In this document: piece by piece, positions 1 to 64,000 of the stretch
How positions within the stretch are numbered: the first letter of the stretch is position 1
How the letters are laid out: each line of letters starts with the position of its first letter
Assembly (NCBI GenBank): GCA_011911785.1
Contig: GCA_011911785.1_4084.1
Origin: a phage
Length of the DNA: 64,000 nucleotides
Strand: one strand, 5' to 3'
Translations under genes and position numbers: made by a program
The notes under the pieces: model-generated
The model's input: only the letters and a program-made list of their open reading frames with translations
Told to the model about the DNA's origin: nothing
Databases searched by the model: none

Positions 1-141
1 TGATTTGTCTATCCCGTTGCATTGTACTGTACAGAATGTTAAACGCAAAAAAGATCTTTAATTAGCTTTACTTTATGCAGATACTTTGATATAGTGTCTG
101 CATAGGGGAAAGAAATTAAATTAACTTAAGAGGATAGTATA

Positions 142-411
142 ATGAAAAATATCAGTACTTTAATCGATGCAGGTACGCATGTTCGTCGGTCTATGGTTGC
201 AACCAGTACTACAAAACAAGTACCAAGCGGTTATCTTGTATTTGTACACGATGGAAAACTCCTGGAACGTTCAATCAATTTTGATGTTAAGAACAATTGT
301 CGTTTTATTATCTTTAAGCGTGAACAATATAAAATTGATTTGCCAGCGAAGCCCATTAGCGGGGCGTACAACGTGCAATCATTGTTTGAGCGTCAACCAT
401 ACACCTATTAA
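142..411 (+). CDS. hypothetical protein (89 aa)
   Basis: RBS AAGAGGA 7 nt upstream of ATG; intact ORF. Confidence 0.55.
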   Translation: MKNISTLIDAGTHVRRSMVATSTTKQVPSGYLVFVHDGKLLERSINFDVKNNCRFIIFKREQYKIDLPAKPISGAYNVQSLFERQPYTY

Positions 412-462
412 TCAAAACATCGTTAGCGGTCGATTTAGGCCGCTAATATTGAGGATAATACC

Positions 463-633
463 ATGAACGTTAATCAAGTACTGAATGAAGTTGAAAGCAT
501 CATTAAACCTATGCAGCGTAGCGATGCTATTCCTACACCGGAAGAATGCAGACTATACGAACAATACAGCGTAGAACAAGCCCAGGCGATGGCCCGTATT
601 CGTCCGGTTGCTAGTACTGATAAGGCGGTGTAA
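463..633 (+). CDS. hypothetical small protein (56 aa)
   Basis: below track cutoff; RBS GAGGA upstream of ATG 463; stop TAA 631-633. Confidence 0.4.
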   Translation: MNVNQVLNEVESIIKPMQRSDAIPTPEECRLYEQYSVEQAQAMARIRPVASTDKAV

Positions 634-634
634 T

Positions 635-844
635 ATGCTTACTGTACAGGATAAGATCGACATCTTAAAGGTTAATATGTATGTGATTGATGCCGTACCT
701 GGTAAAGTATTTGCATACGATGATTCTAATCGTAGTCCTTTCTATTGTAGTCATGTAGTTGGATACGTGCCGTTGGCGTATGTTATCGAAAGAGTGGTTG
801 ATGCAGCATACAATCATTTTTTAGAAAATAATACTTGCAATTAG
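635..844 (+). CDS. hypothetical protein (69 aa)
   Basis: track ORF 608-844 trimmed to ATG overlapping upstream stop (TAATATG). Confidence 0.4.
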   Translation: MLTVQDKIDILKVNMYVIDAVPGKVFAYDDSNRSPFYCSHVVGYVPLAYVIERVVDAAYNHFLENNTCN

Positions 845-896
845 TTTTCAGTACTGTATAATTGTTTACATAGAGGGGGGAAATGGTTCTCCCCTG
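835..896 (+). promoter_or_regulatory. sigma70-like promoter (TTGCAA-N16-TATAAT) plus G-rich 5'UTR stem-loop (PeSL-like cassette)
   Basis: TTGCAA 835-840, AGTACTG then TATAAT 857-862, hairpin GGGGGGAAatggTTCTCCCC about 873-895. Confidence 0.55.
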
Positions 897-913
897 ATAC
901 TAGGAGAATCAAA

Positions 914-1066
914 ATGAAACAATACAACGCTCGGTTTGATGTTACTATCGGCAACGGCAAAGGTCAATTTTCTTTCAGTACTCGTCGCAGTTATACAGAA
1001 AACTTCCTGCGTAATTGTGCATTGACCGCCGCACAAATTAAACATTACTTCCAGGCTAAAAAATGA
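914..1066 (+). CDS. hypothetical small protein (50 aa)
   Basis: RBS AGGAGAA upstream; below track cutoff. Confidence 0.45.
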   Translation: MKQYNARFDVTIGNGKGQFSFSTRRSYTENFLRNCALTAAQIKHYFQAKK

Positions 1067-1152
1067 AATCATTGGCTTATTACAGTTCGGCGGTGATCGG
1101 TGCATTGATCGCGGCATTGTTAGTAACCTATCTATTCTTTGTGGTGATTTAA
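1063..1152 (+). CDS. hypothetical 29-aa hydrophobic peptide (single predicted TM helix)
   Basis: ATGA stop/start overlap with previous ORF; MKSLAYYSSAVIGALIAALLVTYLFFVVI. Confidence 0.3.
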   Translation: MKSLAYYSSAVIGALIAALLVTYLFFVVI

Positions 1153-1290
1153 ATGAATCCTAACGGTTTAATTTACAGTGCTCCTAAAACGAAAGCAGAT
1201 AAAGCGAAAGCACGTAAAGCGAAAGTAAAGGAGTACATCAAGCAAGGCATGACGCGAAAAGCAGCAGTACTAAAAGCTAAAAATAAATGA
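1153..1290 (+). CDS. hypothetical Lys-rich small protein (45 aa)
   Basis: ATG directly after upstream stop; KAxKAK repeats. Confidence 0.35.
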   Translation: MNPNGLIYSAPKTKADKAKARKAKVKEYIKQGMTRKAAVLKAKNK

Positions 1291-1297
1291 AAAAAGT

Positions 1298-1375
1298 GGT
1301 TGACTTCGGTCAGCCATTTTGCTATTATATATTCATTGAGAGATAGCTCACTAGCCCACCGGGTGCGGAAGTGTA
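1298..1375 (+). promoter_or_regulatory. repeat copy 1 of 4: intrinsic-terminator hairpin fused to sigma70 promoter (TTGACT-N17-TATTAT) plus conserved leader
   Basis: hairpin TGGTTGAC-ttcg-GTCAGCCA then T-run; -35 inside 5' arm of stem; leader block ...AGCCCACCGGGTGC... Confidence 0.6.
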
Positions 1376-1409
1376 AATAAAATATATCAATCTAATAAGG
1401 AGTACTACA

Positions 1410-1592
1410 ATGTTTAAACCAATCGAACTAGCGGCATCACATATCATCGGTAAACCTGCCGTTATCATACGCCAGGAAGACGTAAACCTATGGATCATCT
1501 ATGTAGACATGAAAGAGATTGAGCGTCACGATGATTTCAAATCAGCGTCAATTGCGTATGATATGGCGTTATGTGAGTATCAAAGAGATTAA
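1410..1592 (+). CDS. hypothetical protein (60 aa)
   Basis: RBS AAGGAG upstream of ATG. Confidence 0.55.
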   Translation: MFKPIELAASHIIGKPAVIIRQEDVNLWIIYVDMKEIERHDDFKSASIAYDMALCEYQRD

Positions 1593-1612
1593 AAGTATTT
1601 TGCAAAAAGTAC

Positions 1613-1671
1613 TTGCATTGTACTTAGAATCAAGTATAATGTTTTACATAGCAAGGGGAAACGGTTTCCCC
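1613..1671 (+). promoter_or_regulatory. sigma70-like promoter (TTGCAT-N16-TATAAT) plus 5'UTR stem-loop (PeSL-like)
   Basis: AAGTAC-TTGCATT-GTACTT inverted repeat around -35; TATAAT 1635-1640; hairpin GGGGAAACggTTTCCCC 1655-1671. Confidence 0.6.
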
Positions 1672-1691
1672 TGGTAATAAGGAAACGAATC

Positions 1692-2033
1692 ATGACTATC
1701 TCAATTGCTCAATCTAACTTTGAAAACGAAATCATCGCCCAGGCACTGCGTTTAAATGATGGTCGGGCCGAAATTAATTACGGTTTCAATTCAGGCGGTT
1801 GTGAAAACTATCAGTACTTTGTAACGGCTGATGGCGGTGTCCTGGGAATCAATACAGTTATTGTAAACATTCAGAAAATTAATTTCAATGATCCAGACGA
1901 TAGCCAGTTTTACATTGTCGGCGTAGACGTGAACTATGAGGATGACTCACTAACTGATGATTGCACTGGTGAGAAGTTAGAAAGTGCATACGGTGAAGAT
2001 GATTATCAGTCCGGTCCAGAAGATTTCGAATAA
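1692..2033 (+). CDS. hypothetical acidic protein (113 aa)
   Basis: RBS AAGGAAA; D/E-rich C-terminal half. Confidence 0.6.
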   Translation: MTISIAQSNFENEIIAQALRLNDGRAEINYGFNSGGCENYQYFVTADGGVLGINTVIVNIQKINFNDPDDSQFYIVGVDVNYEDDSLTDDCTGEKLESAYGEDDYQSGPEDFE

Positions 2034-2047
2034 TATTAAAAAATAGT

Positions 2048-2106
2048 TTGACAATAGATTATAGTACTGTATAATAGTTTACATCAAGGGGAGAATAGTT
2101 CTCCCC
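2048..2106 (+). promoter_or_regulatory. sigma70-like promoter (TTGACA-N16-TATAAT) plus 5'UTR stem-loop (PeSL-like)
   Basis: TTGACA 2048-2053, AGTACTG-TATAAT 2070-2075, hairpin GGGGAGAAtagTTCTCCCC 2088-2106. Confidence 0.65.
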
Positions 2107-2128
2107 ACTAACAGAGAGAGAAAACAAA

Positions 2129-2341
2129 ATGGCTAATATCCGGTCGAAATTGAAAAATGCAAAACAAGTTTTATTTTCAGACCATGAATACTTTAATAAA
2201 GATATTACAGGAGTTACAAGTATCAAGGAAGTAAAAGAAAAAACTGGCGTTTTGTGTGATGTGCGATTGGTTGGAACATTTGGGAATAACGTGCTATATC
2301 GATGCGGTGATTATAACTTTACATTAACCATTATCGATTAA
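2129..2341 (+). CDS. hypothetical protein (70 aa)
   Basis: ORF downstream of promoter cassette; RBS GAGAGAGA. Confidence 0.55.
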   Translation: MANIRSKLKNAKQVLFSDHEYFNKDITGVTSIKEVKEKTGVLCDVRLVGTFGNNVLYRCGDYNFTLTIID

Positions 2342-2360
2342 AAATATTATCACAGTACTA

Positions 2361-2389
2361 TTGACAAAGATTGATAGTACTGGCATAAT
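2361..2389 (+). promoter_or_regulatory. sigma70-like promoter (TTGACA-N17-CATAAT)
   Basis: TTGACA 2361-2366, AGTACTG, CATAAT 2384-2389. Confidence 0.5.
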
Positions 2390-2423
2390 AGATTTTATCA
2401 ACTACACTACTAAGGAATTAAAA

Positions 2424-2603
2424 ATGGCTATCATCGCAAAAACTGAAATCGTTGGTCTGGATTCTATCATCATGACGTTTGAAGATCAAAAAGGGATGTA
2501 TGTAGTTTCCTATGGTGATTATGTTCGGGAGTATGAAACGGTAGACGAAGCCTTTGAAAGTTACATTCGCCAGGTGAATAAAGCATACGACGACTACCGC
2601 TAA
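2424..2603 (+). CDS. hypothetical small protein (59 aa)
   Basis: track ORF 2361-2603 trimmed: its first ATG lies inside the promoter; RBS AAGGAA precedes ATG 2424. Confidence 0.5.
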   Translation: MAIIAKTEIVGLDSIIMTFEDQKGMYVVSYGDYVREYETVDEAFESYIRQVNKAYDDYR

Positions 2604-2630
2604 AATATATTACCAGTACTATTAAAGATA

Positions 2631-2658
2631 TTGACATAGTTTGATAGTACTGTATAAT
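2631..2658 (+). promoter_or_regulatory. sigma70-like promoter (TTGACA-N16-TATAAT)
   Basis: TTGACA 2631-2636, AGTACTG-TATAAT 2653-2658. Confidence 0.55.
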
Positions 2659-2702
2659 AAGTTTTATCAACAGTAGTTAACTTAACCTAAGAGAGAAAGA
2701 AA

Positions 2703-2846
2703 ATGATCGCACTGGATTCATTCATCGAAGCAGTACTGGCAAAAACTGGCGAAGATCTGACCGCAGAACAATACGCAATGATCGAACAATGCCAGCAAGA
2801 CGGTAAATCGGTGAAAGATACTGTTAAGATTATCCGCAAGATGTAA
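2703..2846 (+). CDS. hypothetical small protein (47 aa)
   Basis: RBS AGAGAGAAAG; below track cutoff; followed by intrinsic terminator. Confidence 0.45.
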   Translation: MIALDSFIEAVLAKTGEDLTAEQYAMIEQCQQDGKSVKDTVKIIRKM

Positions 2847-2852
2847 GATTAT

Positions 2853-2883
2853 AGCCCACTGGTTAACGCTGGTGGGCTTTTTA
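2853..2883 (+). terminator. rho-independent terminator
   Basis: stem AGCCCAC/GTGGGCT followed by TTTTT. Confidence 0.65.
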
Positions 2884-2967
2884 GTATATACCTATCCGAT
2901 AGTACTACAAAATAGATTAGCTCGTTAGAATGCGTTTGAGAGCGTTTAAATAAGTACTAAAAAGTAA

Positions 2968-2995
2968 TTGACAGTACTGAAAGATAGTATATAAT
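2968..2995 (+). promoter_or_regulatory. sigma70-like promoter (TTGACA-N16-TATAAT)
   Basis: TTGACA 2968-2973 then AGTACTG; TATAAT 2990-2995. Confidence 0.55.
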
Positions 2996-3024
2996 ATTTT
3001 ATATCTTAACTGAGGATAGAAATC

Positions 3025-3381
3025 ATGGGAATACAACACATCACGCGTACTACTGACAATGGTGAGATCACTGGTTATCAAGTACAGGGAAAAGCGTCAC
3101 AATTGCAGTACTGGTTTGAAAAACGTGGATTGATTGCACCGGATCTTGATTATGACCGTGTAGCGTTTATTGATTCTCTTTATGTTGATTCTGCTAGTCG
3201 GGGTAATGGTGAAGGCACGGAATTGATGAACGCCTTTATTGATGCCGCCGATGATTCAGATTGTATCATTTTAGAATGCGATACGGGAGAAGATAACGCC
3301 TTTAATCTTAAAGAATGGTACGAAGGTTTCGGATTCGAAGTACTGATCGATAGTGAATATCCTATCATGATTTTATCGTAG
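3025..3381 (+). CDS. putative GNAT-family N-acetyltransferase (118 aa)
   Basis: RBS GAGGA; segment VAFIDSLYVDSASRGNGEGTELM resembles GNAT motif A (R-G-x-G-x-G). Confidence 0.5.
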   Translation: MGIQHITRTTDNGEITGYQVQGKASQLQYWFEKRGLIAPDLDYDRVAFIDSLYVDSASRGNGEGTELMNAFIDAADDSDCIILECDTGEDNAFNLKEWYEGFGFEVLIDSEYPIMILS

Positions 3382-3394
3382 TACTAAAAAGTAA

Positions 3395-3451
3395 TTGACA
3401 GTACTGATAGATAGTGTATAATGTTTTACATGAAGGGGAAACATCTTCCCC
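3395..3451 (+). promoter_or_regulatory. sigma70-like promoter plus 5'UTR stem-loop (PeSL-like)
   Basis: TTGACA 3395-3400, TATAAT 3417-3422, hairpin GGGGAAacatcTTCCCC. Confidence 0.6.
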
Positions 3452-3463
3452 TACTAAGAGGAA

Positions 3464-3658
3464 ATGAAAATGGAAAACTTATCAAGTATTTTAGTACAAG
3501 ATGAATACGGCAATCCAGGAAGTGCTATCATTGTTCGGGGTAATAAGGCAACGTTTGTTATTGCTGGTGGACCTGTACAGCGTAGCATTAAAAACAATGC
3601 CGTTACTATTAATAATGTACGCTATCGCTTAGATAAAGAATTGATTCACAAACTGTAA
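3464..3658 (+). CDS. hypothetical protein (64 aa)
   Basis: RBS AAGAGGA upstream. Confidence 0.55.
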   Translation: MKMENLSSILVQDEYGNPGSAIIVRGNKATFVIAGGPVQRSIKNNAVTINNVRYRLDKELIHKL

Positions 3659-3685
3659 TATTAATTTAATAGAGGATAACAATAA

Positions 3686-4009
3686 ATGTACATTCATACT
3701 ACTATCACAAAGGAAGTCCGTTGCCAGTTCGAAAGTATTCCGGGCGTATGTTTCATCACTGGTACGTTTTCCCCTGGTGATCGTGATAATCCAGTACTGT
3801 TACAATTACGCCATCCATCATGGGATAAAGCATTTGATCTACCGTTGAATGAATTCGCAACTACTGCTGAAAAGTACATTAAAAATATTCGCGAGAATGA
3901 TCGACTATTCATTAATGCTTTTAGTGATTCCGCGTTAAGCGAGATCCACGGCGTATTGGTTGCAATCATGGAATCTATGCAGAAAACTAAATTCAAACAA
4001 GGTGAATAA
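3686..4009 (+). CDS. hypothetical protein (107 aa)
   Basis: RBS GAGGA upstream of ATG. Confidence 0.6.
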   Translation: MYIHTTITKEVRCQFESIPGVCFITGTFSPGDRDNPVLLQLRHPSWDKAFDLPLNEFATTAEKYIKNIRENDRLFINAFSDSALSEIHGVLVAIMESMQKTKFKQGE

Positions 4010-4015
4010 AAACTA

Positions 4016-4075
4016 TTGACAATGCAATCCAGTACTGTATAATAAGTTACATGAAGGGGAGAAATGATTCTCCCC
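4016..4075 (+). promoter_or_regulatory. sigma70-like promoter plus 5'UTR stem-loop (PeSL-like)
   Basis: TTGACA 4016-4021, AGTACTG-TATAAT 4038-4043, hairpin GGGGAGAAatgaTTCTCCCC 4056-4075. Confidence 0.65.
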
Positions 4076-4093
4076 AGTACTGAGGAAAGAAAA

Positions 4094-4306
4094 ATGCAAG
4101 GTCAACTAATCGTTCGTAAATGGTCTGATACTAACGAAAAACCGTGGGATGTACAATACATCGCCCCCAATGGTGAATCCAGATATCAACCAGGTGTAAC
4201 GCATAGTACTGAGCAATTCGCCGCCGCACACCGTGAACGCCTGTTACAATCCATGCAGCAAGGCTTCGGTGAAAAATTCATCCAAGATCATTGGCTGAAA
4301 GATTAA
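4094..4306 (+). CDS. hypothetical protein (70 aa)
   Basis: track ORF 4064-4306 trimmed: first ATG is inside the UTR hairpin; RBS GAGGAAAG precedes ATG 4094. Confidence 0.55.
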   Translation: MQGQLIVRKWSDTNEKPWDVQYIAPNGESRYQPGVTHSTEQFAAAHRERLLQSMQQGFGEKFIQDHWLKD

Positions 4307-4314
4307 AAAAGTAC

Positions 4315-4371
4315 TTGTGAAGTACTTAGAATCAAGTATAATGTTTTACATAGAGAGGGGAATAGTTCCCC
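4315..4371 (+). promoter_or_regulatory. sigma70-like promoter (TTGTGA-N16-TATAAT) plus 5'UTR stem-loop (PeSL-like)
   Basis: TATAAT 4337-4342, hairpin GGGGAAtagTTCCCC 4357-4371. Confidence 0.55.
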
Positions 4372-4393
4372 TCCTAACAAAAAGGAAAGTAAC

Positions 4394-4567
4394 ATGATCC
4401 AAGTAGAATTGACAGTACTGAAAGATCTGTTTTATCGGATGGGTACTACTGGCGAATATCCGAAAGGTGATACCGCAAAACTTTACGTATCGCTGGATGT
4501 ATGGCAACGCGAACAATTAGCAACGGCCTGGCGTAAAGGCAAAGCAGATCGCGAGGTGCAAGCATGA
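4394..4567 (+). CDS. hypothetical small protein (57 aa)
   Basis: RBS AAGGAAAG; below track cutoff. Confidence 0.45.
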   Translation: MIQVELTVLKDLFYRMGTTGEYPKGDTAKLYVSLDVWQREQLATAWRKGKADREVQA

Positions 4568-4713
4568 AAGAATACTTATTCGAAGTTACATTTTTGGGGC
4601 AAGGTATGCACCAACTAGTAAGATCCAGCGGTTATAGTCTTAACCAGGCATGGAATAACTTAAAGAAAATGTACCCTAACGCTATCACATATCGCAACCC
4701 AAAAGAAGTTTAA
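4564..4713 (+). CDS. hypothetical small protein (49 aa)
   Basis: ATGA stop/start overlap with previous ORF. Confidence 0.4.
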   Translation: MKEYLFEVTFLGQGMHQLVRSSGYSLNQAWNNLKKMYPNAITYRNPKEV

Positions 4714-4727
4714 AAATAATTGAAAAA

Positions 4728-4806
4728 GGGATTGACTCCGGTCAGTCCCTTTGCTATTATATACGCATAGAAACAAATCAGCCCACAGGGTGCATAAATG
4801 TATCTA
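4728..4806 (+). promoter_or_regulatory. repeat copy 2 of 4: terminator hairpin fused to promoter (TTGACT-N17-TATTAT) plus conserved leader
   Basis: hairpin GGGATTGAC-tccg-GTCAGTCCC then TTT; TATTAT 4755-4760. Confidence 0.65.
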
Positions 4807-4859
4807 TTATATGCTGGTGGACGTATTATCTAGTACTGAAAACTATTATAAAAAAGTAC

Positions 4860-4926
4860 TTGCATTGTACTTAGAATCAAGTATAATGTTTTACATCAGG
4901 ACGGGGAATGAAACAAGTAACCCCGT
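4860..4926 (+). promoter_or_regulatory. sigma70-like promoter (TTGCAT-N16-TATAAT) plus stem-loop
   Basis: TATAAT 4882-4887; hairpin ACGGGG...CCCCGT 4901-4926. Confidence 0.5.
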
Positions 4927-4975
4927 TAAGTAGTCCAGGAGTAAGACATAAGAAAACCTCCCCTGATAAAATAGT

Positions 4976-5003
4976 TTGACAATAGAAAGTAAACGAGTAT
5001 AAT
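4976..5003 (+). promoter_or_regulatory. sigma70-like promoter (TTGACA-N16-TATAAT)
   Basis: TTGACA 4976-4981, TATAAT 4998-5003. Confidence 0.55.
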
Positions 5004-5035
5004 ACTTACATCAACCACTGATAAGGAAACATAAA

Positions 5036-5311
5036 ATGCGGATTCTACTGACAGCTAACGAAATCGAACAAGTACTGACTACTAACCTGCAAGACTGGAA
5101 ACGTGAAGCAGATATCCAGGCGGTTCAATGGCTTAACGATAAGTTAACGCCGGATGACTTAAGCAAGATTGTAGATCCTCAATTCTATGAAGATATTCAC
5201 GACACCGCGTTAAGCGTCGAGGATGTACTTGATAAGCACTACATTGATATTGATTTGCAGGTTTACGGTCGTAAAAACTTTATCACTATTCACGACATTT
5301 ACAATAATTAA
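5036..5311 (+). CDS. hypothetical protein (91 aa)
   Basis: RBS AAGGAAA upstream of ATG. Confidence 0.6.
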   Translation: MRILLTANEIEQVLTTNLQDWKREADIQAVQWLNDKLTPDDLSKIVDPQFYEDIHDTALSVEDVLDKHYIDIDLQVYGRKNFITIHDIYNN

Positions 5312-5314
5312 GTA

Positions 5315-5375
5315 TTGACAAAGTATCTTAGTACTGTATAATAGTTTACATCAAGTGAGGGGAATGGTTCCCCTC
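5315..5375 (+). promoter_or_regulatory. sigma70-like promoter plus 5'UTR stem-loop (PeSL-like)
   Basis: TTGACA 5315-5320, TATAAT 5337-5342, hairpin GAGGGGAAtggTTCCCCTC; near-identical to cassette at 5585. Confidence 0.65.
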
Positions 5376-5398
5376 CTAACTAAAAGAGAGAAATAAAA

Positions 5399-5581
5399 AT
5401 GGCTAAGTGCACTATCTGTAAGAAAGAAATCGTATTAGTTCCAAGTGCCCGTGAACGTGCCGCTCGGTTCGGTGGCAAAGCGTCAGACTATACAAAAATG
5501 TTTACTACCCATGCAGATTGCCAGGTAGCAAAACGTTCACAAGAAAGCGTAGAATTAATGCGTAAACTTTCCAGAAAATAA
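5399..5581 (+). CDS. hypothetical protein (60 aa), possible Zn-ribbon (CxxC...HxxC)
   Basis: RBS AGAGAGA; CTICKK...HADC. Confidence 0.5.
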   Translation: MAKCTICKKEIVLVPSARERAARFGGKASDYTKMFTTHADCQVAKRSQESVELMRKLSRK

Positions 5582-5584
5582 GTA

Positions 5585-5646
5585 TTGACAAAGTATCTTA
5601 GTACTGTATAATAGTTTACATCGAGTGAGGGGAAACGGTTCCCCTC
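5585..5646 (+). promoter_or_regulatory. sigma70-like promoter plus 5'UTR stem-loop (PeSL-like)
   Basis: TTGACA 5585-5590, TATAAT 5607-5612, hairpin GAGGGGAAacggTTCCCCTC. Confidence 0.65.
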
Positions 5647-5669
5647 CTAACAAAGAGAGAGAAATAAAA

Positions 5670-5993
5670 ATGGCTATGATCCTCACCCAGAAAGTAGAAC
5701 TGAAAATTGTAACCTCCTTTGACATTAAAGTTAATCGGTGGACTGATTCACACGGCAATACTTACCACTCTTGCTACGTGTCTGCTTTGATTGGTGATCG
5801 CTGGGAGGATTTAGGACATGAAACCTTTACTTACGGTTACGGCACACAAGGCGAATACACAGGCTTGGAGATCATTAAAGAAACCGTTATAGGTTTCAAC
5901 CCGAAAGAAAAAGTTATTCATCAAATAGAAAAAGAGATCAACAAAGAAATAACAGTTCGATACTACGATGTAAAACGTAAGAAAGACATGTAA
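5670..5993 (+). CDS. hypothetical protein (107 aa)
   Basis: track ORF 5625-5993 trimmed to ATG after RBS GAGAGAGA; upstream part is promoter/hairpin. Confidence 0.55.
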   Translation: MAMILTQKVELKIVTSFDIKVNRWTDSHGNTYHSCYVSALIGDRWEDLGHETFTYGYGTQGEYTGLEIIKETVIGFNPKEKVIHQIEKEINKEITVRYYDVKRKKDM

Positions 5994-6015
5994 TAGAATC
6001 CATTTAAAGTACTAT

Positions 6016-6044
6016 TTGACATTGCCCAGATAGTACTTTATAAT
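6016..6044 (+). promoter_or_regulatory. sigma70-like promoter (TTGACA-N17-TATAAT)
   Basis: TTGACA 6016-6021, TATAAT 6039-6044. Confidence 0.5.
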
Positions 6045-6092
6045 AGACTCTAGCTTGTAGTACTAATTAACTTAACTAATAGGATGTATACC

Positions 6093-6488
6093 ATGATTAC
6101 TAAATTCTACGCTACCCGTGAAGCTGCCCGTATTGTTGCACGCGAGGAAGGAGCAGCATTTAAAGACATGGGCACGACCGCACCGAAAGGCCAACGCTGG
6201 GCCGTACAGTTCAAAGAAATCTCTGATATTGTGCATTCACCTGAGCCAGTACTAACAGCAGCAGAACTAAAACGAGCGGATATGCTGGCGGCAGTACTTA
6301 ACGCACAAGATGAGTTTATCGCTGGTTCTGATATCAAAGTACAGGTAAATGCTAATGCATGGACTCACGCGGATCACCTGGCTAACCTGAAGCGTCCAAG
6401 TGAACTGGTTCGCAACCAAAAAGAGATCCGTCATGATCGTAAGGGTAATCGTGTAACAGTATACAGTAAACGCCGCCAGGTTATCTAA
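6093..6488 (+). CDS. hypothetical protein (131 aa)
   Basis: RBS AGGA then ATG 6093 (track starts 6084); followed by terminator. Confidence 0.6.
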   Translation: MITKFYATREAARIVAREEGAAFKDMGTTAPKGQRWAVQFKEISDIVHSPEPVLTAAELKRADMLAAVLNAQDEFIAGSDIKVQVNANAWTHADHLANLKRPSELVRNQKEIRHDRKGNRVTVYSKRRQVI

Positions 6489-6510
6489 TAACTTGCAGTA
6501 CTAACAACAC

Positions 6511-6536
6511 GGCGGGATCAGTTCCCGCCTTTTTTA
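6511..6536 (+). terminator. rho-independent terminator
   Basis: stem GGCGGGA/TCCCGCC followed by TTTTTT. Confidence 0.7.
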
Positions 6537-57354: not shown

Positions 57355-57633
57355 ATGAATTTACAAAGAGATGTGTGGACATATGAATATCTTTTAGAAC
57401 TTTATGGTGATATGTATCTTAAAAATAAACCATACATAGACGATATAAGGGCTATGATAGATGATTTTTCTTCTGAGTTTATTCCACTTTATACTAATAA
57501 AGAAGTTACACATAAATCAATGAATAAATCAGGTATTATTGATGAAATTGATTTTGATACACATGGTGTGTATTTTTATATTATTTTCTCCAATGATACT
57601 GTTGGTATATACACGTATAAAGAATTAAAATAA
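57355..57633 (+). CDS. hypothetical protein (92 aa)
   Basis: ORF followed by terminator. Confidence 0.5.
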   Translation: MNLQRDVWTYEYLLELYGDMYLKNKPYIDDIRAMIDDFSSEFIPLYTNKEVTHKSMNKSGIIDEIDFDTHGVYFYIIFSNDTVGIYTYKELK

Positions 57634-57638
57634 GTACA

Positions 57639-57666
57639 GGCCAGCATGGATTGCTGGTCTTTTTTG
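57639..57666 (+). terminator. rho-independent terminator
   Basis: stem GGCCAGCA/TGCTGGTC followed by TTTTTT. Confidence 0.65.
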
Positions 57667-57676
57667 TAGGTACATT

Positions 57677-57976
57677 ATGGACAAAATACAATTAGTTAGT
57701 AGTACGATAACAATGCTTGCTGATGTTGCCAGATGGAGCAGTGGTGGTTCAGTTAGTACTATGCTCGGTATACTCACGCAATACACCTATACCTGCAATG
57801 CAATGTTATATGGTAAGGAAGTTGAAATTGATGATCCCTATGGAATTCCCATATCATATGACCGAGGTGTAATAAAAAGAGTTACTCTGAGACTAACATA
57901 TCATCCATATTTTGTAGTAGAACTTCCTGATGGAAAATTAAGAGAATATGTTGCTAAAAGGTTAAAACTAAAATGA
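57677..57976 (+). CDS. hypothetical protein (99 aa)
   Basis: intact ORF. Confidence 0.5.
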   Translation: MDKIQLVSSTITMLADVARWSSGGSVSTMLGILTQYTYTCNAMLYGKEVEIDDPYGIPISYDRGVIKRVTLRLTYHPYFVVELPDGKLREYVAKRLKLK

Positions 57977-58551
57977 ATATTGTAGAATTAAGTACTAAGC
58001 TGATTACTATGCGTAACGAGTGGTACAATTGGTATTATAACGGTACTGACATGGATTTTTCAAAATATCCATTTATGGAATCAGGATGTGATTCAAGATA
58101 CCGCTGGTTGAGTAAAGATGATTCTGGTTTACATATTCGAGTTGATGATAGTGGTCAGGGAATTATAAAAGATTTACTTCAAGTTGAAGAACTCGTCCAT
58201 GATGAGTGGTGTGATAATGATCCATACCTAGGAAATATAATTTATGTAACTGAAGATGATTGTATATTCGTCATTCAGCGTCATGGTGATTCTATGTTTT
58301 ATATAGCAGACAGCAGTACACCTGAAGGTGCAGCATCAGATGGTCTTATTCCTAAGATTAATATATTAGATTTTGGCTTACCTGAGCACTTCCAGATGAG
58401 TACTCTATTCGATATTCCACCGTTTGAGTTTTTTGAAGAATTTAAATTGTACTACAGTGAACTTCAAAAATTGAGTACCGAGAGTCGTATTGAAATAACA
58501 GTCAGGTACATGGACGGGGTAAAATTAACCGACACGGGGATAGAATTTTGA
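57973..58551 (+). CDS. FQxS-motif family protein (192 aa), outlying member
   Basis: motif PEHFQMSTLFD; ATGA overlap. Confidence 0.6.
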   Translation: MNIVELSTKLITMRNEWYNWYYNGTDMDFSKYPFMESGCDSRYRWLSKDDSGLHIRVDDSGQGIIKDLLQVEELVHDEWCDNDPYLGNIIYVTEDDCIFVIQRHGDSMFYIADSSTPEGAASDGLIPKINILDFGLPEHFQMSTLFDIPPFEFFEEFKLYYSELQKLSTESRIEITVRYMDGVKLTDTGIEF

Positions 58552-59237
58552 TTAAAGACTTAGACCGAATTTTGTATGTACTAAGGGGTGTAATTACTTT
58601 ACAACCACAGATTAACCGCATGGAGAGAGCCTTTGAATTAAAATCAAGAGAAACTCCATATTCACATATATCAAATGTAGTTGGTTCATTCTGCTCTGAA
58701 GACTCTGCATATGATATATATGTGTGTGAAGTACAGCCCAGTAATGATCTTGGTTTTGCAATCTTCGATAAAAATCAAGTACTGGTCAGTATGTTTCAGT
58801 GTAATAATCCTTTCTGGAAAACATGCCTGTACCCTGATTGGGCTATGCTTGACCCTACGAATAGTAAGATTAAAGTATATGACTCTAAGAATGAAGAAGT
58901 TGTTATTGATTTAGATGAATCAATGACAGAGGAAGAACACTTCCAGCTTATGATGATGCGTGCGATGCCAGACTATGAAGCAATGATTAACACAGTACAA
59001 TACATTAAGGATACGATGAGATCATTGTGTAATCATGAGTTTTGTCATCCAGTATCGTATGAACATTTGGATTTAGATTTCAGTACTATCAAGTTTAAAG
59101 ATAGTGTTATTGAATATATCCAAGAGAACACTAAATTTGATTTTATTAGTACTATGATTAATAATCCTGATACAAATTTCAGACGACAGTACAATGAGTC
59201 TTTATCTAATGGACGTGATACCAGTTGGTGGAAATAA
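58548..59237 (+). CDS. FQxS-family-like protein (229 aa), outlying member
   Basis: motif EEEHFQLMMMRA. Confidence 0.55.
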   Translation: MIKDLDRILYVLRGVITLQPQINRMERAFELKSRETPYSHISNVVGSFCSEDSAYDIYVCEVQPSNDLGFAIFDKNQVLVSMFQCNNPFWKTCLYPDWAMLDPTNSKIKVYDSKNEEVVIDLDESMTEEEHFQLMMMRAMPDYEAMINTVQYIKDTMRSLCNHEFCHPVSYEHLDLDFSTIKFKDSVIEYIQENTKFDFISTMINNPDTNFRRQYNESLSNGRDTSWWK

Positions 59238-59238
59238 T

Positions 59239-59502
59239 ATGAATATCCAAGATAGATTGCAATTGTTGCACACACTTGAAGAAGCTGCTTTTGAACTTGT
59301 TAATAAAATTGCACAAGAACTCCCAAAAGGAACCAACATTCGTGTTCGTGAAATGGATTATTTAACGGGAGAAATTGAAGAAAAAGTTCTAACAGTGATC
59401 AAAGTAACATACTATGAATCAGAGTTATCAATTCAATGTAAGTCAGATAATGGTTACGTTTCCTACTATGGCACAGATGTAGATATAGAGGTAATTAGAT
59501 GA
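59239..59502 (+). CDS. hypothetical protein (87 aa)
   Basis: track ORF 59194 trimmed to ATG just after the upstream stop. Confidence 0.45.
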   Translation: MNIQDRLQLLHTLEEAAFELVNKIAQELPKGTNIRVREMDYLTGEIEEKVLTVIKVTYYESELSIQCKSDNGYVSYYGTDVDIEVIR

Positions 59503-60644
59503 GTAATTTACGAGAAATATACAATGATTTAATGGAACTATGTGAATCTAATGATGCATTTTTCTATATAGATCACACAAGCCCAGGTGGTGGTTTATAC
59601 CGTGTATTCACCTATCGTCTGGCATCTTATACTGATTTCACAAATAAAAATGCACTAGAAACTCGTGGTTCTATGTGGGAAATTGATTCCAACGGAATTA
59701 TGATTCGTTGTGCAGCACGTACAATGAAAAAGTTCTTCAATGCATATGAAAACCCTTACACAATGTTCAGTACTGATACTACCTGTGATGATATTGCGGT
59801 TGTAATGCCTAAGCTAGATGGTTCTATCATCAGCACATTCCGTGATAACGATGGTGAAATCCGTTGTAAATCACACACTTCGTTATCGTCTGACCATGCT
59901 ATTAACAGTACTCGCCTTTTGAACGAGAACCAAAATCTCTATCAATACATTGATGAAGCAGACCGTTTGGGCTATACTGTGAATCTGGAATACACAAGCC
60001 CAGAGTATCGAATTGTGTTACCATATCAGGTGGAACAGTTATTTGTTCTTAACGTTCGTCATCGTATTAGTGGTGAGTTGTTATGCGGTAAAGCACTACG
60101 TGATAAGTTTCCATGCCTTTCACAGTACAGTACTAATATGACAGGTAATGACATTCATCATACATTCCCGATTATGCCTACATTTAAAGAGTCAATCGAT
60201 AAAGTACGTTCTATGCTTGACATTGAAGGTTTTGTGTGTATAATGAAAGATGGTACAATGTGCAAAATCAAAACTGACTGGTATTGCTCTTTGCATTTAA
60301 CAAAAGATTCCATTCTTATTGATTCCCATTTATATGAAGCTGTACTGACTGGTGCAAGTGATGACTTAAAACAATTGTTCAGTACTGATACATATGCAAT
60401 GGATAAGATATTAAGAATGGAACAATTGGTATTTTCGTGCTATAATGCTTTACAAGATGAGGTAGAAAGCTTCGTCCATGCATACAAGCACTTAGAGCGA
60501 AAGGAATTCGCACAAAAGGTTCAGCAAGATTTACCTAATGTATTGAACCGACAAGGCTTGGCCTTTGCGTTGTACAATGGCAAAAGTGTCGATTATAAAG
60601 AGACTTTACTAAAGTACTACAAAGATGTACTAAAGGATTTTTAG
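59499..60644 (+). CDS. rnlA: RNA ligase 1 (T4 Rnl1 / gp63-like), 381 aa
   Basis: colinear similarity to T4 RnlA as recalled (LMELC...FFY start, adenylation KxDG motif VVMPKLDGS, EGFV and K-x-K segments). Confidence 0.85.
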   Translation: MSNLREIYNDLMELCESNDAFFYIDHTSPGGGLYRVFTYRLASYTDFTNKNALETRGSMWEIDSNGIMIRCAARTMKKFFNAYENPYTMFSTDTTCDDIAVVMPKLDGSIISTFRDNDGEIRCKSHTSLSSDHAINSTRLLNENQNLYQYIDEADRLGYTVNLEYTSPEYRIVLPYQVEQLFVLNVRHRISGELLCGKALRDKFPCLSQYSTNMTGNDIHHTFPIMPTFKESIDKVRSMLDIEGFVCIMKDGTMCKIKTDWYCSLHLTKDSILIDSHLYEAVLTGASDDLKQLFSTDTYAMDKILRMEQLVFSCYNALQDEVESFVHAYKHLERKEFAQKVQQDLPNVLNRQGLAFALYNGKSVDYKETLLKYYKDVLKDF

Positions 60645-60673
60645 TACTAACTAGCCCAGCACAAGGAGAAGTG

Positions 60674-60928
60674 ATGGCTAAACCTAAGTATAAAAATGAT
60701 GGTTCCCTTTCTCCTACTGAGTTCAGGAAAATACAACAAGAAATCGATGATTTACAGCACAAACGCTCAATGAAAGGTGTGAAGATTAGTAAGAAGCGAA
60801 TCGAGAATACTTTTGGGTGTAGTAGTACTGAATATAAGAAGAAAAGGAAACCAAAGGATGTTAAGCCGAGAATACATGATGTAACTCGCTATACATCAAA
60901 ACGTGAAAATAAATTCGATCCACTATAA
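60674..60928 (+). CDS. hypothetical basic protein (84 aa)
   Basis: RBS AAGGAGA; Lys/Arg-rich. Confidence 0.5.
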   Translation: MAKPKYKNDGSLSPTEFRKIQQEIDDLQHKRSMKGVKISKKRIENTFGCSSTEYKKKRKPKDVKPRIHDVTRYTSKRENKFDPL

Positions 60929-60937
60929 GGAGTTCAT

Positions 60938-61174
60938 ATGAAAGTTGAAGTTCAGCATAGTATTGTTCAGGATATGTCAGTGGTTAAGTTTCTTTCTCTG
61001 AAAGATTACTTCAGATGTATCAAGTTCCTTGAAGAATCTCAATTACAGTGGACCCCCTTAAAGTACAGTTCATCCAATGACACTGCTAGTATTCGTTGTG
61101 ATGAAGCTGTACTTGTAAAAATCTCCAAGCGATTTGGAGTTGGGAAATACAATGAAAAACAATCATTCAAGTGA
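60938..61174 (+). CDS. hypothetical protein (78 aa)
   Basis: RBS AAGGAG upstream. Confidence 0.5.
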   Translation: MKVEVQHSIVQDMSVVKFLSLKDYFRCIKFLEESQLQWTPLKYSSSNDTASIRCDEAVLVKISKRFGVGKYNEKQSFK

Positions 61175-61406
61175 TTTGTTATATTATAAAGTACTATCAG
61201 AATGTTTGACGGATATATTGTACCGTGAGAGTAATACTCTACGTGAAAAATATATTAACAAAAGAGTACGTTATAAATCATCTTATGATGGGATGAATGT
61301 TTATGGTAAAATCACTAATGTATATGTAGATGATGATTTTACATTGAATATCATTGTCGATAATTGTATTAGTATCTCAATTGATGATATTATTGAGGTA
61401 ATCTAA
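61134..61406 (+). CDS. hypothetical protein (90 aa), possibly related to the YIGK family
   Basis: segment KYINKRVRYKSSYDGMNVYGKI. Confidence 0.45.
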   Translation: MELGNTMKNNHSSDLLYYKVLSECLTDILYRESNTLREKYINKRVRYKSSYDGMNVYGKITNVYVDDDFTLNIIVDNCISISIDDIIEVI

Positions 61407-61717
61407 TGAATAAAGCATTAAAAGAACTTAATAATTTAATGAATGCAGAAATTGAATTAACTAATACTATTTCTGAAATTGTTCATGATATGATTACACA
61501 ATACAAGAAATCACTCATTGGTAAGAAAGTTGAATGCTGGGATTACAACACTAAAACATGGTTCGAAACTATCATTAGTGATGTTAATGTTAAATTTCAT
61601 GTAGTTACTCATCACATTTCTGACGAGTGCTATGTAGAAGTAACTATAGGACACAACACGCGACATGAACGTTTTTCGTGGTACAATCTAAAGAATGTGA
61701 AATTTATTGAGGATTAA
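61406..61717 (+). CDS. hypothetical protein (103 aa), possibly related to the YIGK family
   Basis: segment SLIGKKVECWDYNTKTWFETI. Confidence 0.45.
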   Translation: MNKALKELNNLMNAEIELTNTISEIVHDMITQYKKSLIGKKVECWDYNTKTWFETIISDVNVKFHVVTHHISDECYVEVTIGHNTRHERFSWYNLKNVKFIED

Positions 61718-62650
61718 ATGCCAACTATTACACTAACAGTTGGATTGCCAGGATGTGGTAAAACCACGTGGGCAGTGCAAGAAATTAAAAAAGCAAAGTC
61801 CAAGACTATCAACATCAACCGTGATGATATTCGAGAGTCTATGGCTGGGTCACATGATGCTTATAAATTCACTGATGCGAACGAGAAGTACGTAACTAAT
61901 CAACAGTTCAGTGCAGCAAACGCCGCAGCAGCGAATGGATGGAACATTATTGTGTCCGATACGAACCTGAAACAAGGTTTTCGTGATGAATGGAAACGTT
62001 GGGCTAAAGATAATGGTTATGATTACAAAGAAAAGAACTTCTATGATGATTTTGTGCCTAATGAAGACCGTGGTGCAGATGTTCATGAATTCTTTAAGAT
62101 TAAAGAGTTCGTAAAACTTTGTAAGAAATATAACCTCCAGCGTGAGCGTTCAGTTCAAGATGATATCATTGACACAATGGCAGATACGTACTATTATAGA
62201 AAGGCATTACACATTGGTTACTATGGTAATGCACGTGAAGCTGCTATCATTGTTGATATCGACGGTACTCTTGCTCATAAGTGGGGACGTAACCCGTTTG
62301 ATGAAAGTACTGTCCTTCAGGATACACCAGATGAAGAAGTAATTCTGTCTGTCATTGCTGAGGCTGTTTTCCATAAGCGTAAGGTAATCGTCATGAGTGG
62401 GCGTACTGAAGGGTGTCGTGCTGATACTGAACAGTGGCTTAAGAATTGGGGCATTCCCTACGATGTATTGTTAATGCGAGCTATCGATGATAAACGTCCT
62501 GATGATGTTGTCAAATTCGAGTTGTATATGAATAACGTTGTTAATCATTACGATGTTAAGAAAGTATTTGATGACAGGGCCGCCGTTGTATTCATGTGGC
62601 GTAAGCTACTAGGCTTGAAAGTATTTCAGGTGGAACCTGGACTATTTTGA
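61718..62650 (+). CDS. pseT: polynucleotide 5'-kinase / 3'-phosphatase (T4 Pnk-like), 310 aa
   Basis: N-terminal P-loop GLPGCGKTT and C-terminal HAD-type DxDGT motif (IVDIDGTLA); colinear with T4 PseT as recalled. Confidence 0.85.
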   Translation: MPTITLTVGLPGCGKTTWAVQEIKKAKSKTININRDDIRESMAGSHDAYKFTDANEKYVTNQQFSAANAAAANGWNIIVSDTNLKQGFRDEWKRWAKDNGYDYKEKNFYDDFVPNEDRGADVHEFFKIKEFVKLCKKYNLQRERSVQDDIIDTMADTYYYRKALHIGYYGNAREAAIIVDIDGTLAHKWGRNPFDESTVLQDTPDEEVILSVIAEAVFHKRKVIVMSGRTEGCRADTEQWLKNWGIPYDVLLMRAIDDKRPDDVVKFELYMNNVVNHYDVKKVFDDRAAVVFMWRKLLGLKVFQVEPGLF

Positions 62651-62657
62651 TTATTAC

Positions 62658-62688
62658 AAAGGGATCAGTACTGATCCCTTTTCTTTTA
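62658..62688 (+). terminator. rho-independent terminator
   Basis: perfect palindrome AAAGGGATCAGTACTGATCCCTTT followed by a T-rich tract. Confidence 0.65.
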
Positions 62689-62702
62689 ATTTAGGTGATA
62701 TA

Positions 62703-62963
62703 ATGGATAATAGTTATGATGTACATTTCAAACAATGCCAGTTGGTTTTACACTCCCTAATGGAAGAGTTGCGAATCAAGTACATAGGCAAAATTGCTAC
62801 ATGTTTATCAACTGGAAGACGTGGGCAAATTGTAGAGATTTATTATTCTCCACTTAGTGATGAAATTAAAATAAAAGCTAAAATATTCCTAACTGGATCT
62901 AACGATTTCTTGGGTGAACATATGGTAAAAATTATCTCTGAATTATCTATATCGGATGAATAA
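62703..62963 (+). CDS. YIGK-motif family member (86 aa)
   Basis: segment RIKYIGKIATCLSTGRRG. Confidence 0.55.
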   Translation: MDNSYDVHFKQCQLVLHSLMEELRIKYIGKIATCLSTGRRGQIVEIYYSPLSDEIKIKAKIFLTGSNDFLGEHMVKIISELSISDE

Positions 62964-62965
62964 AC

Positions 62966-63232
62966 ATGAATATTAATATAGATTTCCAATTTGTTAATTC
63001 ACATATTCAAGTACTGAAAAATTTAGTAAAGCAACTATCAGAAAAATATAAAGATACATATGTTAAATGTGTCTATGATACAAGTGACTGGGAACGCATT
63101 ATTAAAATTGATTCAGTATATCTTGATACTAACAATAATATAGTTGTATCTGGCGTTGATATGTATGGGCATAGATACCAATTCACAACGCGAGCAACAA
63201 TAACTACTGTGGATGGATATGAATACGAATGA
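62966..63232 (+). CDS. YIGK-family-like protein (88 aa)
   Basis: tandem paralog. Confidence 0.5.
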   Translation: MNINIDFQFVNSHIQVLKNLVKQLSEKYKDTYVKCVYDTSDWERIIKIDSVYLDTNNNIVVSGVDMYGHRYQFTTRATITTVDGYEYE

Positions 63233-63518
63233 ATTCCAAGCATTATTGAAAACATTATATCTTCTTAAAGAAGAATCTCTTGCAATGTATAATGAAAAAC
63301 AATACAAGTTTGAAGAACAACTCATTCATTTTCATGATGAATATCTTGACTTTTTGAATAAAAAATACTCAAATGTTCAGTGCAAATATCGAGGTAGTGA
63401 TGTTATTATTACCAAAATCGAATCCAGTACTTACGGATATCCATACCTTTGTTGCAAATATATCCCAAGTAATATAACATTTCGCTCAAGAATGTATTCG
63501 AGGTTTATTTTTTCATGA
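63213..63518 (+). CDS. YIGK-family-like protein (101 aa)
   Basis: tandem paralog. Confidence 0.5.
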   Translation: MDMNTNEFQALLKTLYLLKEESLAMYNEKQYKFEEQLIHFHDEYLDFLNKKYSNVQCKYRGSDVIITKIESSTYGYPYLCCKYIPSNITFRSRMYSRFIFS

Positions 63519-63796
63519 ATAATGATTCATTGAAGTTTTTTTATTATCATTATCGTATTTTACGTAGTTTATATTTTTCAGAATCCGATGAAAGATTACT
63601 AACATCATTATCAGTACTGATGGATAATTACGAGAACGAATTATCAAAAGTGGTTTTTGGTGTCAATGTTCTAGATGATACCGATTTAACATGGACAATT
63701 ATTGAAGTGGCGACCTGGAATGGTAATATTTTGTACAGGTGCGAACGAGCAGGTTTTTTATGGGATGCAACATATGACGAGATTAGAATTGTATGA
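63515..63796 (+). CDS. YIGK-family-like protein (93 aa)
   Basis: ATGA overlap; tandem paralog. Confidence 0.5.
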   Translation: MNNDSLKFFYYHYRILRSLYFSESDERLLTSLSVLMDNYENELSKVVFGVNVLDDTDLTWTIIEVATWNGNILYRCERAGFLWDATYDEIRIV

Positions 63797-63803
63797 CAGG
63801 CAA

Positions 63804-64000
63804 GTGAAATTGATAAGAGATACTCGTCGTTTCTTTCATACTCAATTAGTAGACCCATGTTATGATATTTCCGATTTCCTTGAAACCTATCTCCTTGATC
63901 TAACTACACCACTGCTTAAAAAATACGTAGGCACAAAAGCTATATATCTTGGAAGAGAAGTTGAAATTACCAACATATCATATTCTTATGGGGCATACAT
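63804..64000 (+). CDS. YIGK-motif family member, 3'-truncated by window end
   Basis: open frame to window edge; segment KKYVGTKAIYLGREVEI; GTG or TTG start. Confidence 0.4.
   Translation, partial: MKLIRDTRRFFHTQLVDPCYDISDFLETYLLDLTTPLLKKYVGTKAIYLGREVEITNISYSYGAY

Follow-up and report, generated by a model that had tools for sequence, protein, structure and literature searches.

HIP1 (GCGATCGC) is an 8-bp palindrome with a 6-bp core that cyanobacteria carry at tens of times its expected number, and its function is still debated. A 2015 study by Elhai is said to have described HIP1 in cellular genomes and to have linked it to cognate orphan methyltransferases. Chi (GCTGGTGG) and KOPS (GGGNAGGG) are polar, over-represented words of E. 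coli that self-mark DNA or direct DNA-tracking enzymes. Phages normally purge short palindromes. The present analysis concerns the palindrome AGTACT in a 64,000-nucleotide stretch of phage DNA (NCBI GenBank assembly GCA_011911785.1, contig GCA_011911785.1_4084.1), which is referred to at its full length as the window. The window derives from an Asteriusvirus, a 121Q/PBECO4-like E. coli jumbo phage of about 350 kb. The best explanation of the results is that AGTACT is a positively selected signature word of RaK2-like enterobacterial jumbo phages. Its mode of action is tentatively attributed, at a probability of roughly 0.4, to a reading modeled on Chi and KOPS, in which the distributed word would be read by a phage-encoded, orientation-sensing factor.

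Excess, conservation and clade distribution of AGTACT

The window contains 231 copies of AGTACT, or one per 277 bp, a 12-fold excess over dinucleotide-preserving shuffles (n = 100; 18.8 ± 4.3, maximum 30). AGTACT ranks first among all 4,096 hexamers, followed by its own overlapping extensions CAGTAC and GTACTG, and the octamer CAGTACTG is present in 62 copies against an expected 0.7. An order-3 Markov model predicts 91.6 copies (simulated 89.8 ± 9.2, maximum 111), an expectation that drops to 30.1 once copies of the motif are masked from the training counts. The order-4 expectation is 201, but this fit is circular, since it is AGTACT that raises the counts of AGTAC and GTACT. Within coding sequence, the 184 observed copies compare with 48.7 ± 5.9 after synonymous codon shuffling within genes (3.8-fold, z about 23) and with 20.3 ± 4.3 after shuffling of codon order. 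A codon or dinucleotide artefact is ruled out by the dinucleotide, masked order-3 Markov and codon-preserving controls.

Other palindromes of the same length show the opposite behavior. Many GC-containing 6-bp palindromes, among them CCATGG, GCATGC, CTGCAG, CAGCTG, TGGCCA, GTCGAC and GGATCC, have no copy in the window where 4-7 are expected, and those containing GATC are depleted. This purge is classic restriction avoidance, and since the phage practises it in the ordinary way, the single enriched palindrome stands out. An initial annotation, made from the letters of the window, had reported a roughly tenfold excess of AGTACT based on four hand-counted 1-kb samples, had placed many copies inside coding sequence and had remarked that phages usually avoid palindromic hexamers. 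All of these points hold: the samples are reproduced at 6, 2, 5 and 5 sites, and the ratio of observed to expected copies stays away from 1 under the order-3 Markov and codon controls that the annotation had named as its check. Its statement that the word occurs throughout the window was wrong, as there is no AGTACT at 12,465-16,569 or at 18,590-25,386.

Beyond the hexamer itself, only positions -1 and +6 add information, with C at -1 and G at +6 each found in 49% of sites (-1: A54 C113 G18 T46; +6: T39 G113 C18 A61), and the extended form reads [C/A]AGTACT[G/T]. These flank counts are mirror-symmetric across the strands. Almost all window genes lie on the + strand, yet the flanks are two-fold symmetric, which favors recognition on DNA and disfavors recognition on RNA. 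A longer repeat or mobile element of the REP or MITE type is ruled out because nothing is conserved past -1 and +6; at 130 of the 231 sites the palindrome does not extend at all. Pairs of sites forming LexA boxes are ruled out as well, as there is no peak at the required 18-bp spacing, and helical phasing of the sites is weak at best.

All three codon phases are used (81/29/65). Although 79% of sites are intragenic, intergenic DNA, which makes up 10% of the sequence, is touched by 48 sites (21%), and the density is twofold higher there and directly after stop codons. Within genes, Ser-Thr pairs in the window are written AGT-ACT in 70% of cases, compared with 14% expected from codon usage. The dipeptides Ser-Thr and Val-Leu are themselves about 1.8-fold in excess while the reversed Thr-Ser and Leu-Val are not, and the pressure from the motif therefore appears to extend to protein sequence.

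Genome-wide counts were obtained from the whole genome (355 kb) of Escherichia phage A4, the closest relative, which is 97-98% identical to the window. A4 contains 922 copies of AGTACT where 101 are expected and 224 copies of CAGTACTG where 4.8 are expected, and its GATC count is 645 against 1108 expected. AGTACT is densest over the first 25 kb, at about 7 per kb; the regions of small genes follow with 2-4 per kb, and the structural and replication modules have 1.5-2 per kb. The AGT-ACT share of Ser-Thr pairs is 40-69% in each genome region, compared with about 14% expected, and this evenness indicates that the pressure is genome-wide. Synonymous selection for AGTACT is similar in all gene classes and equally strong in late structural genes, and the density gradient largely mirrors how freely proteins and spacers accommodate sites. 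The A4 tRNA set (segment L007 4019-7088) includes Ser(GCU), the reader of the motif-inflated codon AGU, together with Thr(UGU).

Conservation was evaluated in aligned blocks shared with phage 121Q and Salmonella phage SD-15_S21 at 85-87% identity. AGTACT is intact at 87-88% of its sites, whereas the remaining hexamers of these blocks reach 60-69% (Fisher p = 5e-9 and 1e-4). Between genera, the sites turn over while the density is kept: across eight orthologous genes, comparison of 18 sites in the window with 22 in Cronobacter phage GAP32 yields only 4 at a common codon position. It is therefore the number of sites that is selected and not their place.

AGTACT is also the top hexamer in the sampled segments of GAP32 (253 copies against 14 expected), Klebsiella phage RaK2 (119 against 12), Pectobacterium phage CBB (226 against 12), Yersinia phage fHe-Yen9-04 (158 against 9) and Salmonella phage Munch (145 against 9), as well as in 14 of 14 viral-contig relatives found via a conserved protein (8.7-15x). 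The excess amounts to about 10 to 18 times chance in all enterobacterial RaK2-like lineages sampled. The flank preference is C/G in Asteriusvirus and A/T in the other genera, a shift that points to a reader co-evolving with the phage. The distant relative Pseudomonas phage PA5oct is not enriched (4 against 9.9). The unrelated coliphage muut, which has a similar GC content, has no AGTACT in 41 kb where 12 are expected, and this absence implies that E. coli phages are under real pressure from restriction specific to AGTACT. In E. coli K-12 there are 3 copies in 50 kb, making the word about 60 times rarer than in the phage. The trait is thus old, clade-specific and selected for number rather than place, which fits a distributed signal read by something phage-borne. 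The suggestion of the initial annotation that enrichment reflects selection is well supported, by the controls, the conservation and the clade-wide trait, insofar as it concerns a recognition signal at the DNA level; its further proposals of modification by a Dam-family enzyme and of a packaging signal find no support.

Strand-polar territories and the terminal repeat

The most informative features of the window, missed by the initial annotation, are two motif-free, polar territories, islands 1 and 2 (Table 1), and their link to the edge of the terminal repeat. The islands are the two longest AGTACT gaps of the whole A4 genome, and at the flanking rate the probability of finding no site is about 5e-8 for island 1 and 3e-13 for island 2. 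The TGTACT words of island 1 occur at differing offsets and phases and correspond to AGTACA on the bottom strand, which is the antisense strand of the island 1 genes. In island 2, where 3 copies of AGTACA are expected, every copy is on the + strand (binomial orientation p = 6e-14). An origin of these words as synonymously killed AGTACT is ruled out: they use all three codon phases (12/18/13), and A is the base that follows AGTAC in 45 of 55 cases (A45 G7 C3 T0), with the preference for G at +6 kept. The three phases and the bias toward A argue that AGTACA in island 2 is a separately maintained one-strand signal and not decayed AGTACT. In the island 2 segment of A4, Ser-Thr is written AGT-ACA in 79% of cases and GTA-CTN is used in none of 13 Val-Leu pairs.

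The choice of word follows position. Island 1 and the adjoining block B form a single tandem array of old paralogous genes of about 75 amino acids (aa), the closest pair of which has 71% nucleotide identity, and island 2 and the region that follows it belong to one very divergent paralog superfamily. Since the same paralog family has or lacks AGTACT according to location, position and not gene family decides the form of the word. Recent foreign insertion of the islands is ruled out, as their synteny is kept throughout the genus with an identity of about 80-85%, and recent amplification of a site-free gene is ruled out for island 1, whose paralogs are at most 71% identical. The same pattern of islands is found in A4, 121Q, SD-15_S21 and phage fEgEco12. 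In the distant phage Munch, where the genes of this region are barely alignable, dense palindromes extend to 21.0 kb, TGTACT alone occupies 21.1-23.4 kb, a mixed zone follows, AGTACA alone occupies 25.2-27.5 kb and the palindromes then return, in the same order as in the window and in fEgEco12.

As to the genes themselves, the tandem array at 13178-18330 comprises about 19 divergent small genes (65-87 aa, period ~215 bp) with an LGTNYQ motif near the C-terminal third of the product. The superfamily contributes about 40 genes of 110-210 aa at 25264-47467 and reaches into island 2 and into Munch. An overlapping tandem, AGTACAGTACA, occurs at 22128 and 24505 in the window and at 23895, 24885 and 29024 in Munch, within AGTACA territories and far above chance.

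The position of the repeat edge was taken from fEgEco12, in which the termini have been verified experimentally and the direct terminal repeats are 20,993 bp long (PMC13070987). AGTACT occurs in this phage at 4-10 per kb from 99 to 20,857 and then not again until 26,616, such that the palindromes end within about 140 bp of the verified edge. The segment 19,501-20,902 of fEgEco12 aligns to 11,107-12,518 of the window, and the end of this block maps the edge to about 12,600. By this alignment, island 1 starts at about the inner edge of a terminal repeat of roughly 21 kb.

The E. coli Chi octamer GCTGGTGG is found in the window at 2868, 3563, 4813, 7181, 9106, 11008 and 11231 on the + strand and at 50990 on the - strand, with the seven co-oriented copies lying in the terminal-repeat part. 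A4 has 21 + copies and 2 - copies, compared with an expectation of about 1 for each strand. The 21-kb repeat of fEgEco12 holds 10 + copies, and two inverted copies (578 and 6619) are located near the left terminus. These counts suggest that the phage uses its host's Chi to blunt RecBCD at its ends. Genuine E. coli Chi sites, with an orientation of their own, are thus present apart from AGTACT, and RecBCD can be dismissed as the reader of that word.

Table 1. Positions of the territories, promoters, terminator and selected genes in the window
Feature	Position	Strand	Description
Inner ~12.6 kb of direct terminal repeat	1..12600		Small early genes with sigma-70-type promoters; 81 AGTACT, 6.4 per kb
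Island 1	12601..16568	-	0 AGTACT; the only GTACT words are 6 TGTACT; 1 top-strand AGTACA
Block B	16569..18595		15 AGTACT, 7.4 per kb; same paralog family as island 1
Island 2	18596..25385	+	0 AGTACT, 0 TGTACT, 0 GTACT; 45 AGTACA
Remainder	25386..64000		135 AGTACT, 3.5 per kb; paralogous and metabolic early/middle genes
Promoter, class I	2048..2076	+	TTGACA-N10-AGTACT-GTATAAT; AGTACT at 2063, abutting the -10
Class I, similar copies	starts 2631, 4016, 5315, 5585, 8474, 8968		Variants at 6016 and 11265
Promoter, class II	2968..2997	+	TTGAC/AGTACT; AGTACT at 2973, overlapping the 3' end of the -35
Class II, copies	starts 3395, 6802, 7078, 10478, 10817, 18311
Conserved two-gene unit	6084..6805	+	134-aa protein and 84-aa ParE-like protein; candidate reader lead
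Dam-family (PF05869) methyltransferase gene	51752..52279	+	Small protein; candidate modifier in the initial annotation
Intrinsic terminator	62658..62690	+	AAAGGGATCAGTACTGATCCCTTT followed by a T run; hairpin 62,658-62,681 with AGTACT at apex 62,667

Proposed reader and competing explanations

In the Chi- or KOPS-like reading, AGTACT would be a short DNA signal wanted in large numbers across the phage chromosome without particular positions, and its reader would most likely be a factor that the phage encodes. Just inside the repeat edge, the palindrome gives way first to sparse AGTACA on the bottom strand and later to dense AGTACA on the top strand, and it is therefore best read as a two-way version of a one-way signal, AGTAC(A/T). 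The word could tag phage DNA for a DNA-tracking or single-strand-acting enzyme, such as a nuclease-helicase, a priming enzyme or a nicking activity, with its density peaking in the terminal repeats and one-orientation zones placed where direction would matter, beside the repeat edge. The copies in early-promoter spacers may double as operators. Because orientation on one strand is irrelevant to a symmetric dimer, we infer that the reader, or the process that it serves, senses orientation. A bolder version of this reading, possible but doubtful, treats AGTACT as a chromosome identity code: the two-way, Chi-like word would let a phage enzyme tell phage DNA from host DNA, and the one-way versions would steer end processing, the start of replication or the resolution of concatemers. 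If true, no earlier case of sequence-based self-recognition would have been described for a virus whose DNA is unmodified.

Several points weigh against the Chi- or KOPS-like reading. Pfam and PHROG scans of the island genes, of the clade-conserved window genes and of the neighbors of the phage sigma factor yielded no reader protein. Polar territories were found only in Asteriusvirus and the Munch branch, with none in the portions of GAP32, CBB, fHe-Yen9-04 and RaK2 that were sampled, and polarity may thus be a lineage-specific add-on that does not explain the general function. The density gradient is partly a matter of protein-sequence flexibility, as synonymous usage is fairly even (0.40-0.69). 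We know of no precedent for a palindromic Chi-like or primase signal, and a plain homodimeric DNA-binding protein would account just as well for the symmetry of the flanks and the fixed places in promoters.

One lead to a candidate reader is the conserved two-gene unit listed in Table 1, which is present in all motif-bearing genera sampled and whose promoter carries three AGTACT sites. The 84-aa protein (6551-6805) has a ParE-like toxin domain (PF24732, E = 6e-11), and its gene is kept together with the upstream neighbor in Munch, GAP32, CBB and fHe-Yen9-04. The structure model of the 134-aa partner reaches a pLDDT of only 58.

The explanation that survives best beside the Chi- or KOPS-like reading, though it is judged less likely, is a homodimeric phage DNA-binding protein, a global regulator or architectural factor akin to TF1 of SPO1 or p6 of phi29, that coats the DNA and shuts early promoters irrespective of the orientation of its sites. 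AGTACT has the form of a two-fold symmetric site of 8-10 bp, the densities are raised in spacers and behind stop codons and peak in the early, terminal-repeat region, and the promoters offer further evidence. In the repeat part of the window, 15 of the 20 strong sigma-70-type promoters hold AGTACT at one of two fixed places, either abutting the -10 or overlapping the -35, and this placement is operator-like. The promoter cassettes are paralogous copies, however, and their fixed positions are therefore not independent events; promoters account for only a small share of the sites, and the predominance of intragenic copies, with late structural genes under equal synonymous selection, is not the concentration in regulatory DNA expected of an operator. 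A dimeric binder also leaves the one-strand AGTACA of island 2 (45:0) and the opposite orientation in island 1 unexplained, and no DNA-binding domain was found among the conserved window proteins.

The promoter placements beside the -10 and around the -35 had been recognized in the initial annotation, as had the AGTACT in the stem center of the terminator at 62658, which proves to be the sole hairpin of this kind; at no other site does the palindrome extend by more than 4 bp. Its proposal of a TG-extended -10 is not upheld, because in AGTACTGTATAAT the TG directly abuts TATAAT and lacks the canonical 1-nt spacer. A third promoter cassette (TTGACTCCGGTCAG...) has no AGTACT. The cassette AAAAAGGGATTGACTCCGGTCAGTCCCTTTGCTATTATATA, found at 1300, 4732, 8043 and 11123 with a related copy at 38616, lacks AGTACT; its -35 lies inside an inverted repeat (GGGA...TCCC), and it resembles the promoter-plus-stem-loop cassettes of T4-type phages.

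A rather small chance is given to AGTACT being the target of a phage methyltransferase, that is, an epigenetic self-mark as proposed for HIP1, possibly kept by methylation-linked biased repair. A 6-bp palindrome is typical of type II methyltransferase sites, and the phage encodes both a Dam-family enzyme and a C5-methyltransferase that is conserved across genera, at 72-77% identity as far as CBB. Because muut avoids AGTACT and other palindromes are purged from the window, a phage with more than 900 sites probably masks them somehow, and RaK2 DNA has been reported to resist methylation-sensitive enzymes (PMC3622015). Bisulfite analysis of RaK2, however, placed m5C in CpG context (PMC3622015, data not shown there). 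The C5-methyltransferase of the clade thus probably targets CpG, a dinucleotide that AGTACT lacks, which counts against this enzyme as the modifier. The C5-methyltransferase family is ruled out as a sufficient cause, because muut has a 50%-identical enzyme and no site. The Dam-family enzyme, which the initial annotation had put forward as the modifier, is a small PF05869 protein for which no solved-structure homolog was found, and for this small Dam-family subgroup, Iyer et al. raise RNA as a possible substrate (PMC7824862).

Further points against methylation do not depend on the enzyme. Protection would render a site neutral and not favored, and one-off neighbor words are not depleted, which removes the signature of a Vsr-type repair and rules out a Vsr-like repair drive. 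DNA of fEgEco12 is cut normally by ten enzymes, ScaI not being among them (PMC13070987), and bulk hypermodification is therefore not indicated. No evidence was found that either encoded methyltransferase modifies AGTACT. In A4, the C5 cytosine methyltransferase gene (segment L006 42647-44545, outside the window) is split by an intein (Hint + LAGLIDADG); in relatives the enzyme is uninterrupted and ~285 aa long. The Chi- or KOPS-like reading, the dimeric binder and methylation are not mutually exclusive.

A signal at the RNA level is improbable. AGUACU could be the target of a PCIF1-like small methyltransferase or could pair from copy to copy by self-complementarity, and such a role would suit the location of nearly all genes on one strand, the strictly sense variant of island 2 and the RNA methylation proposed by Iyer et al. 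(PMC7824862). Mirror-symmetric flanks on both DNA strands are not expected from an RNA reader, though, and the variant of island 1 is antisense to its genes, while sites are enriched in untranscribed promoter spacers.

A word without function, left behind by biased codon or amino-acid usage or by a drive from mutation or repair, is very improbable and largely refuted. AGT, ACT, GTA and TAC are common codons and the order-4 model nearly gives the count, but that fit is shown to be circular by masked training, and synonymous shuffles reach only a quarter of the observed number. The excess in three phases and in intergenic DNA makes the codon bias a consequence of the motif, neighbor words are not depleted, and sharp territories within one paralog array cannot stem from a genome-wide bias.

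The least credible proposal, that AGTACT serves to hijack or titrate the host nucleoid-occlusion factor SlmA, draws on the identical core hexamer of the SlmA consensus GTGAGTACTCAC, which is centered on AGTACT (PMC3020112), and on the restriction of the enrichment to Enterobacterales phages and its absence from the Pseudomonas relative, but it is ruled out on the flanks: each SlmA half-site requires G1, T2, a purine at 3, A4 and G5 (PMC3020112), a context that the phage specifically disfavors, the G...C flank being the rarest (4 of 922 sites in A4, 1 of 231 sites of the window), no copy of the complete 12-mer being present and GT.AGTACT.AC occurring twice in 355 kb, and in addition no SlmA homolog is encoded and an unrelated coliphage avoids AGTACT.

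Comparison with described systems

No earlier mention of the enrichment was found in the papers on CBB, RaK2, PA5oct and fEgEco12, in a comparative study of jumbo phages or in full-text searches. Among systems in which the presence or absence of short palindromes marks chromosome territories, AGTACT can be compared with the SBS sites of SlmA, the NBS sites of Noc and the matS sites of MatP; these are bound by dimeric proteins at tens of sites per chromosome, whereas AGTACT has hundreds of sites in 355 kb. TF1 of phage SPO1 and p6 of phage phi29 are abundant phage proteins that favor phage DNA, occupy many sites including terminal early promoters and shut early transcription down. TF1 reads hydroxymethyluracil DNA and p6 reads bendability, however, so that neither recognizes a defined hexamer, and no homolog of either was found here. 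The single-orientation EcoP15I sites of phage T7, a strand pattern shaped by DNA-tracking enzymes, recall the islands, but in T7 a harmful site is depleted or oriented, whereas AGTACT is enriched about tenfold.

AGTACT shares with Chi and KOPS the property of being needed in numbers and not at particular places, and in island 1 (6:1) and island 2 (45:0) its variant is strand-oriented. Every Chi and KOPS site is asymmetric, but the bulk of the signal here consists of the palindrome AGTACT. Phage T4 distinguishes its own DNA from that of its host by modified cytosine. For large phages with unmodified bases, a dense word whose frequency is about 60 times that in the host presents itself as a candidate signal for the same discrimination. 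The strand-polar territories at the repeat edge offer a direct handle on the mechanism through recoding, and ScaI-type restriction should either destroy these genomes or expose a modification. AGTACT also provides a one-line classifier for this phage clade in metagenomes.

The nearest precedent remains HIP1 (see also PMC6105098 and PMC6604393). Like HIP1, AGTACT is an 8-bp palindrome around a 6-bp core, lies far above expectation genome-wide, occurs in all frames and in intergenic DNA and is conserved within its lineage. In contrast to HIP1, it is carried by viruses, is several-fold denser, has no evident cognate methyltransferase and forms territories of a strand-polar variant. The clade maintains AGTACT at about 1 per 280-390 bp at a cost in codon and even amino-acid choice, and a phage-borne iterated palindrome with polar half-site territories represents a HIP1-like system in a new form.

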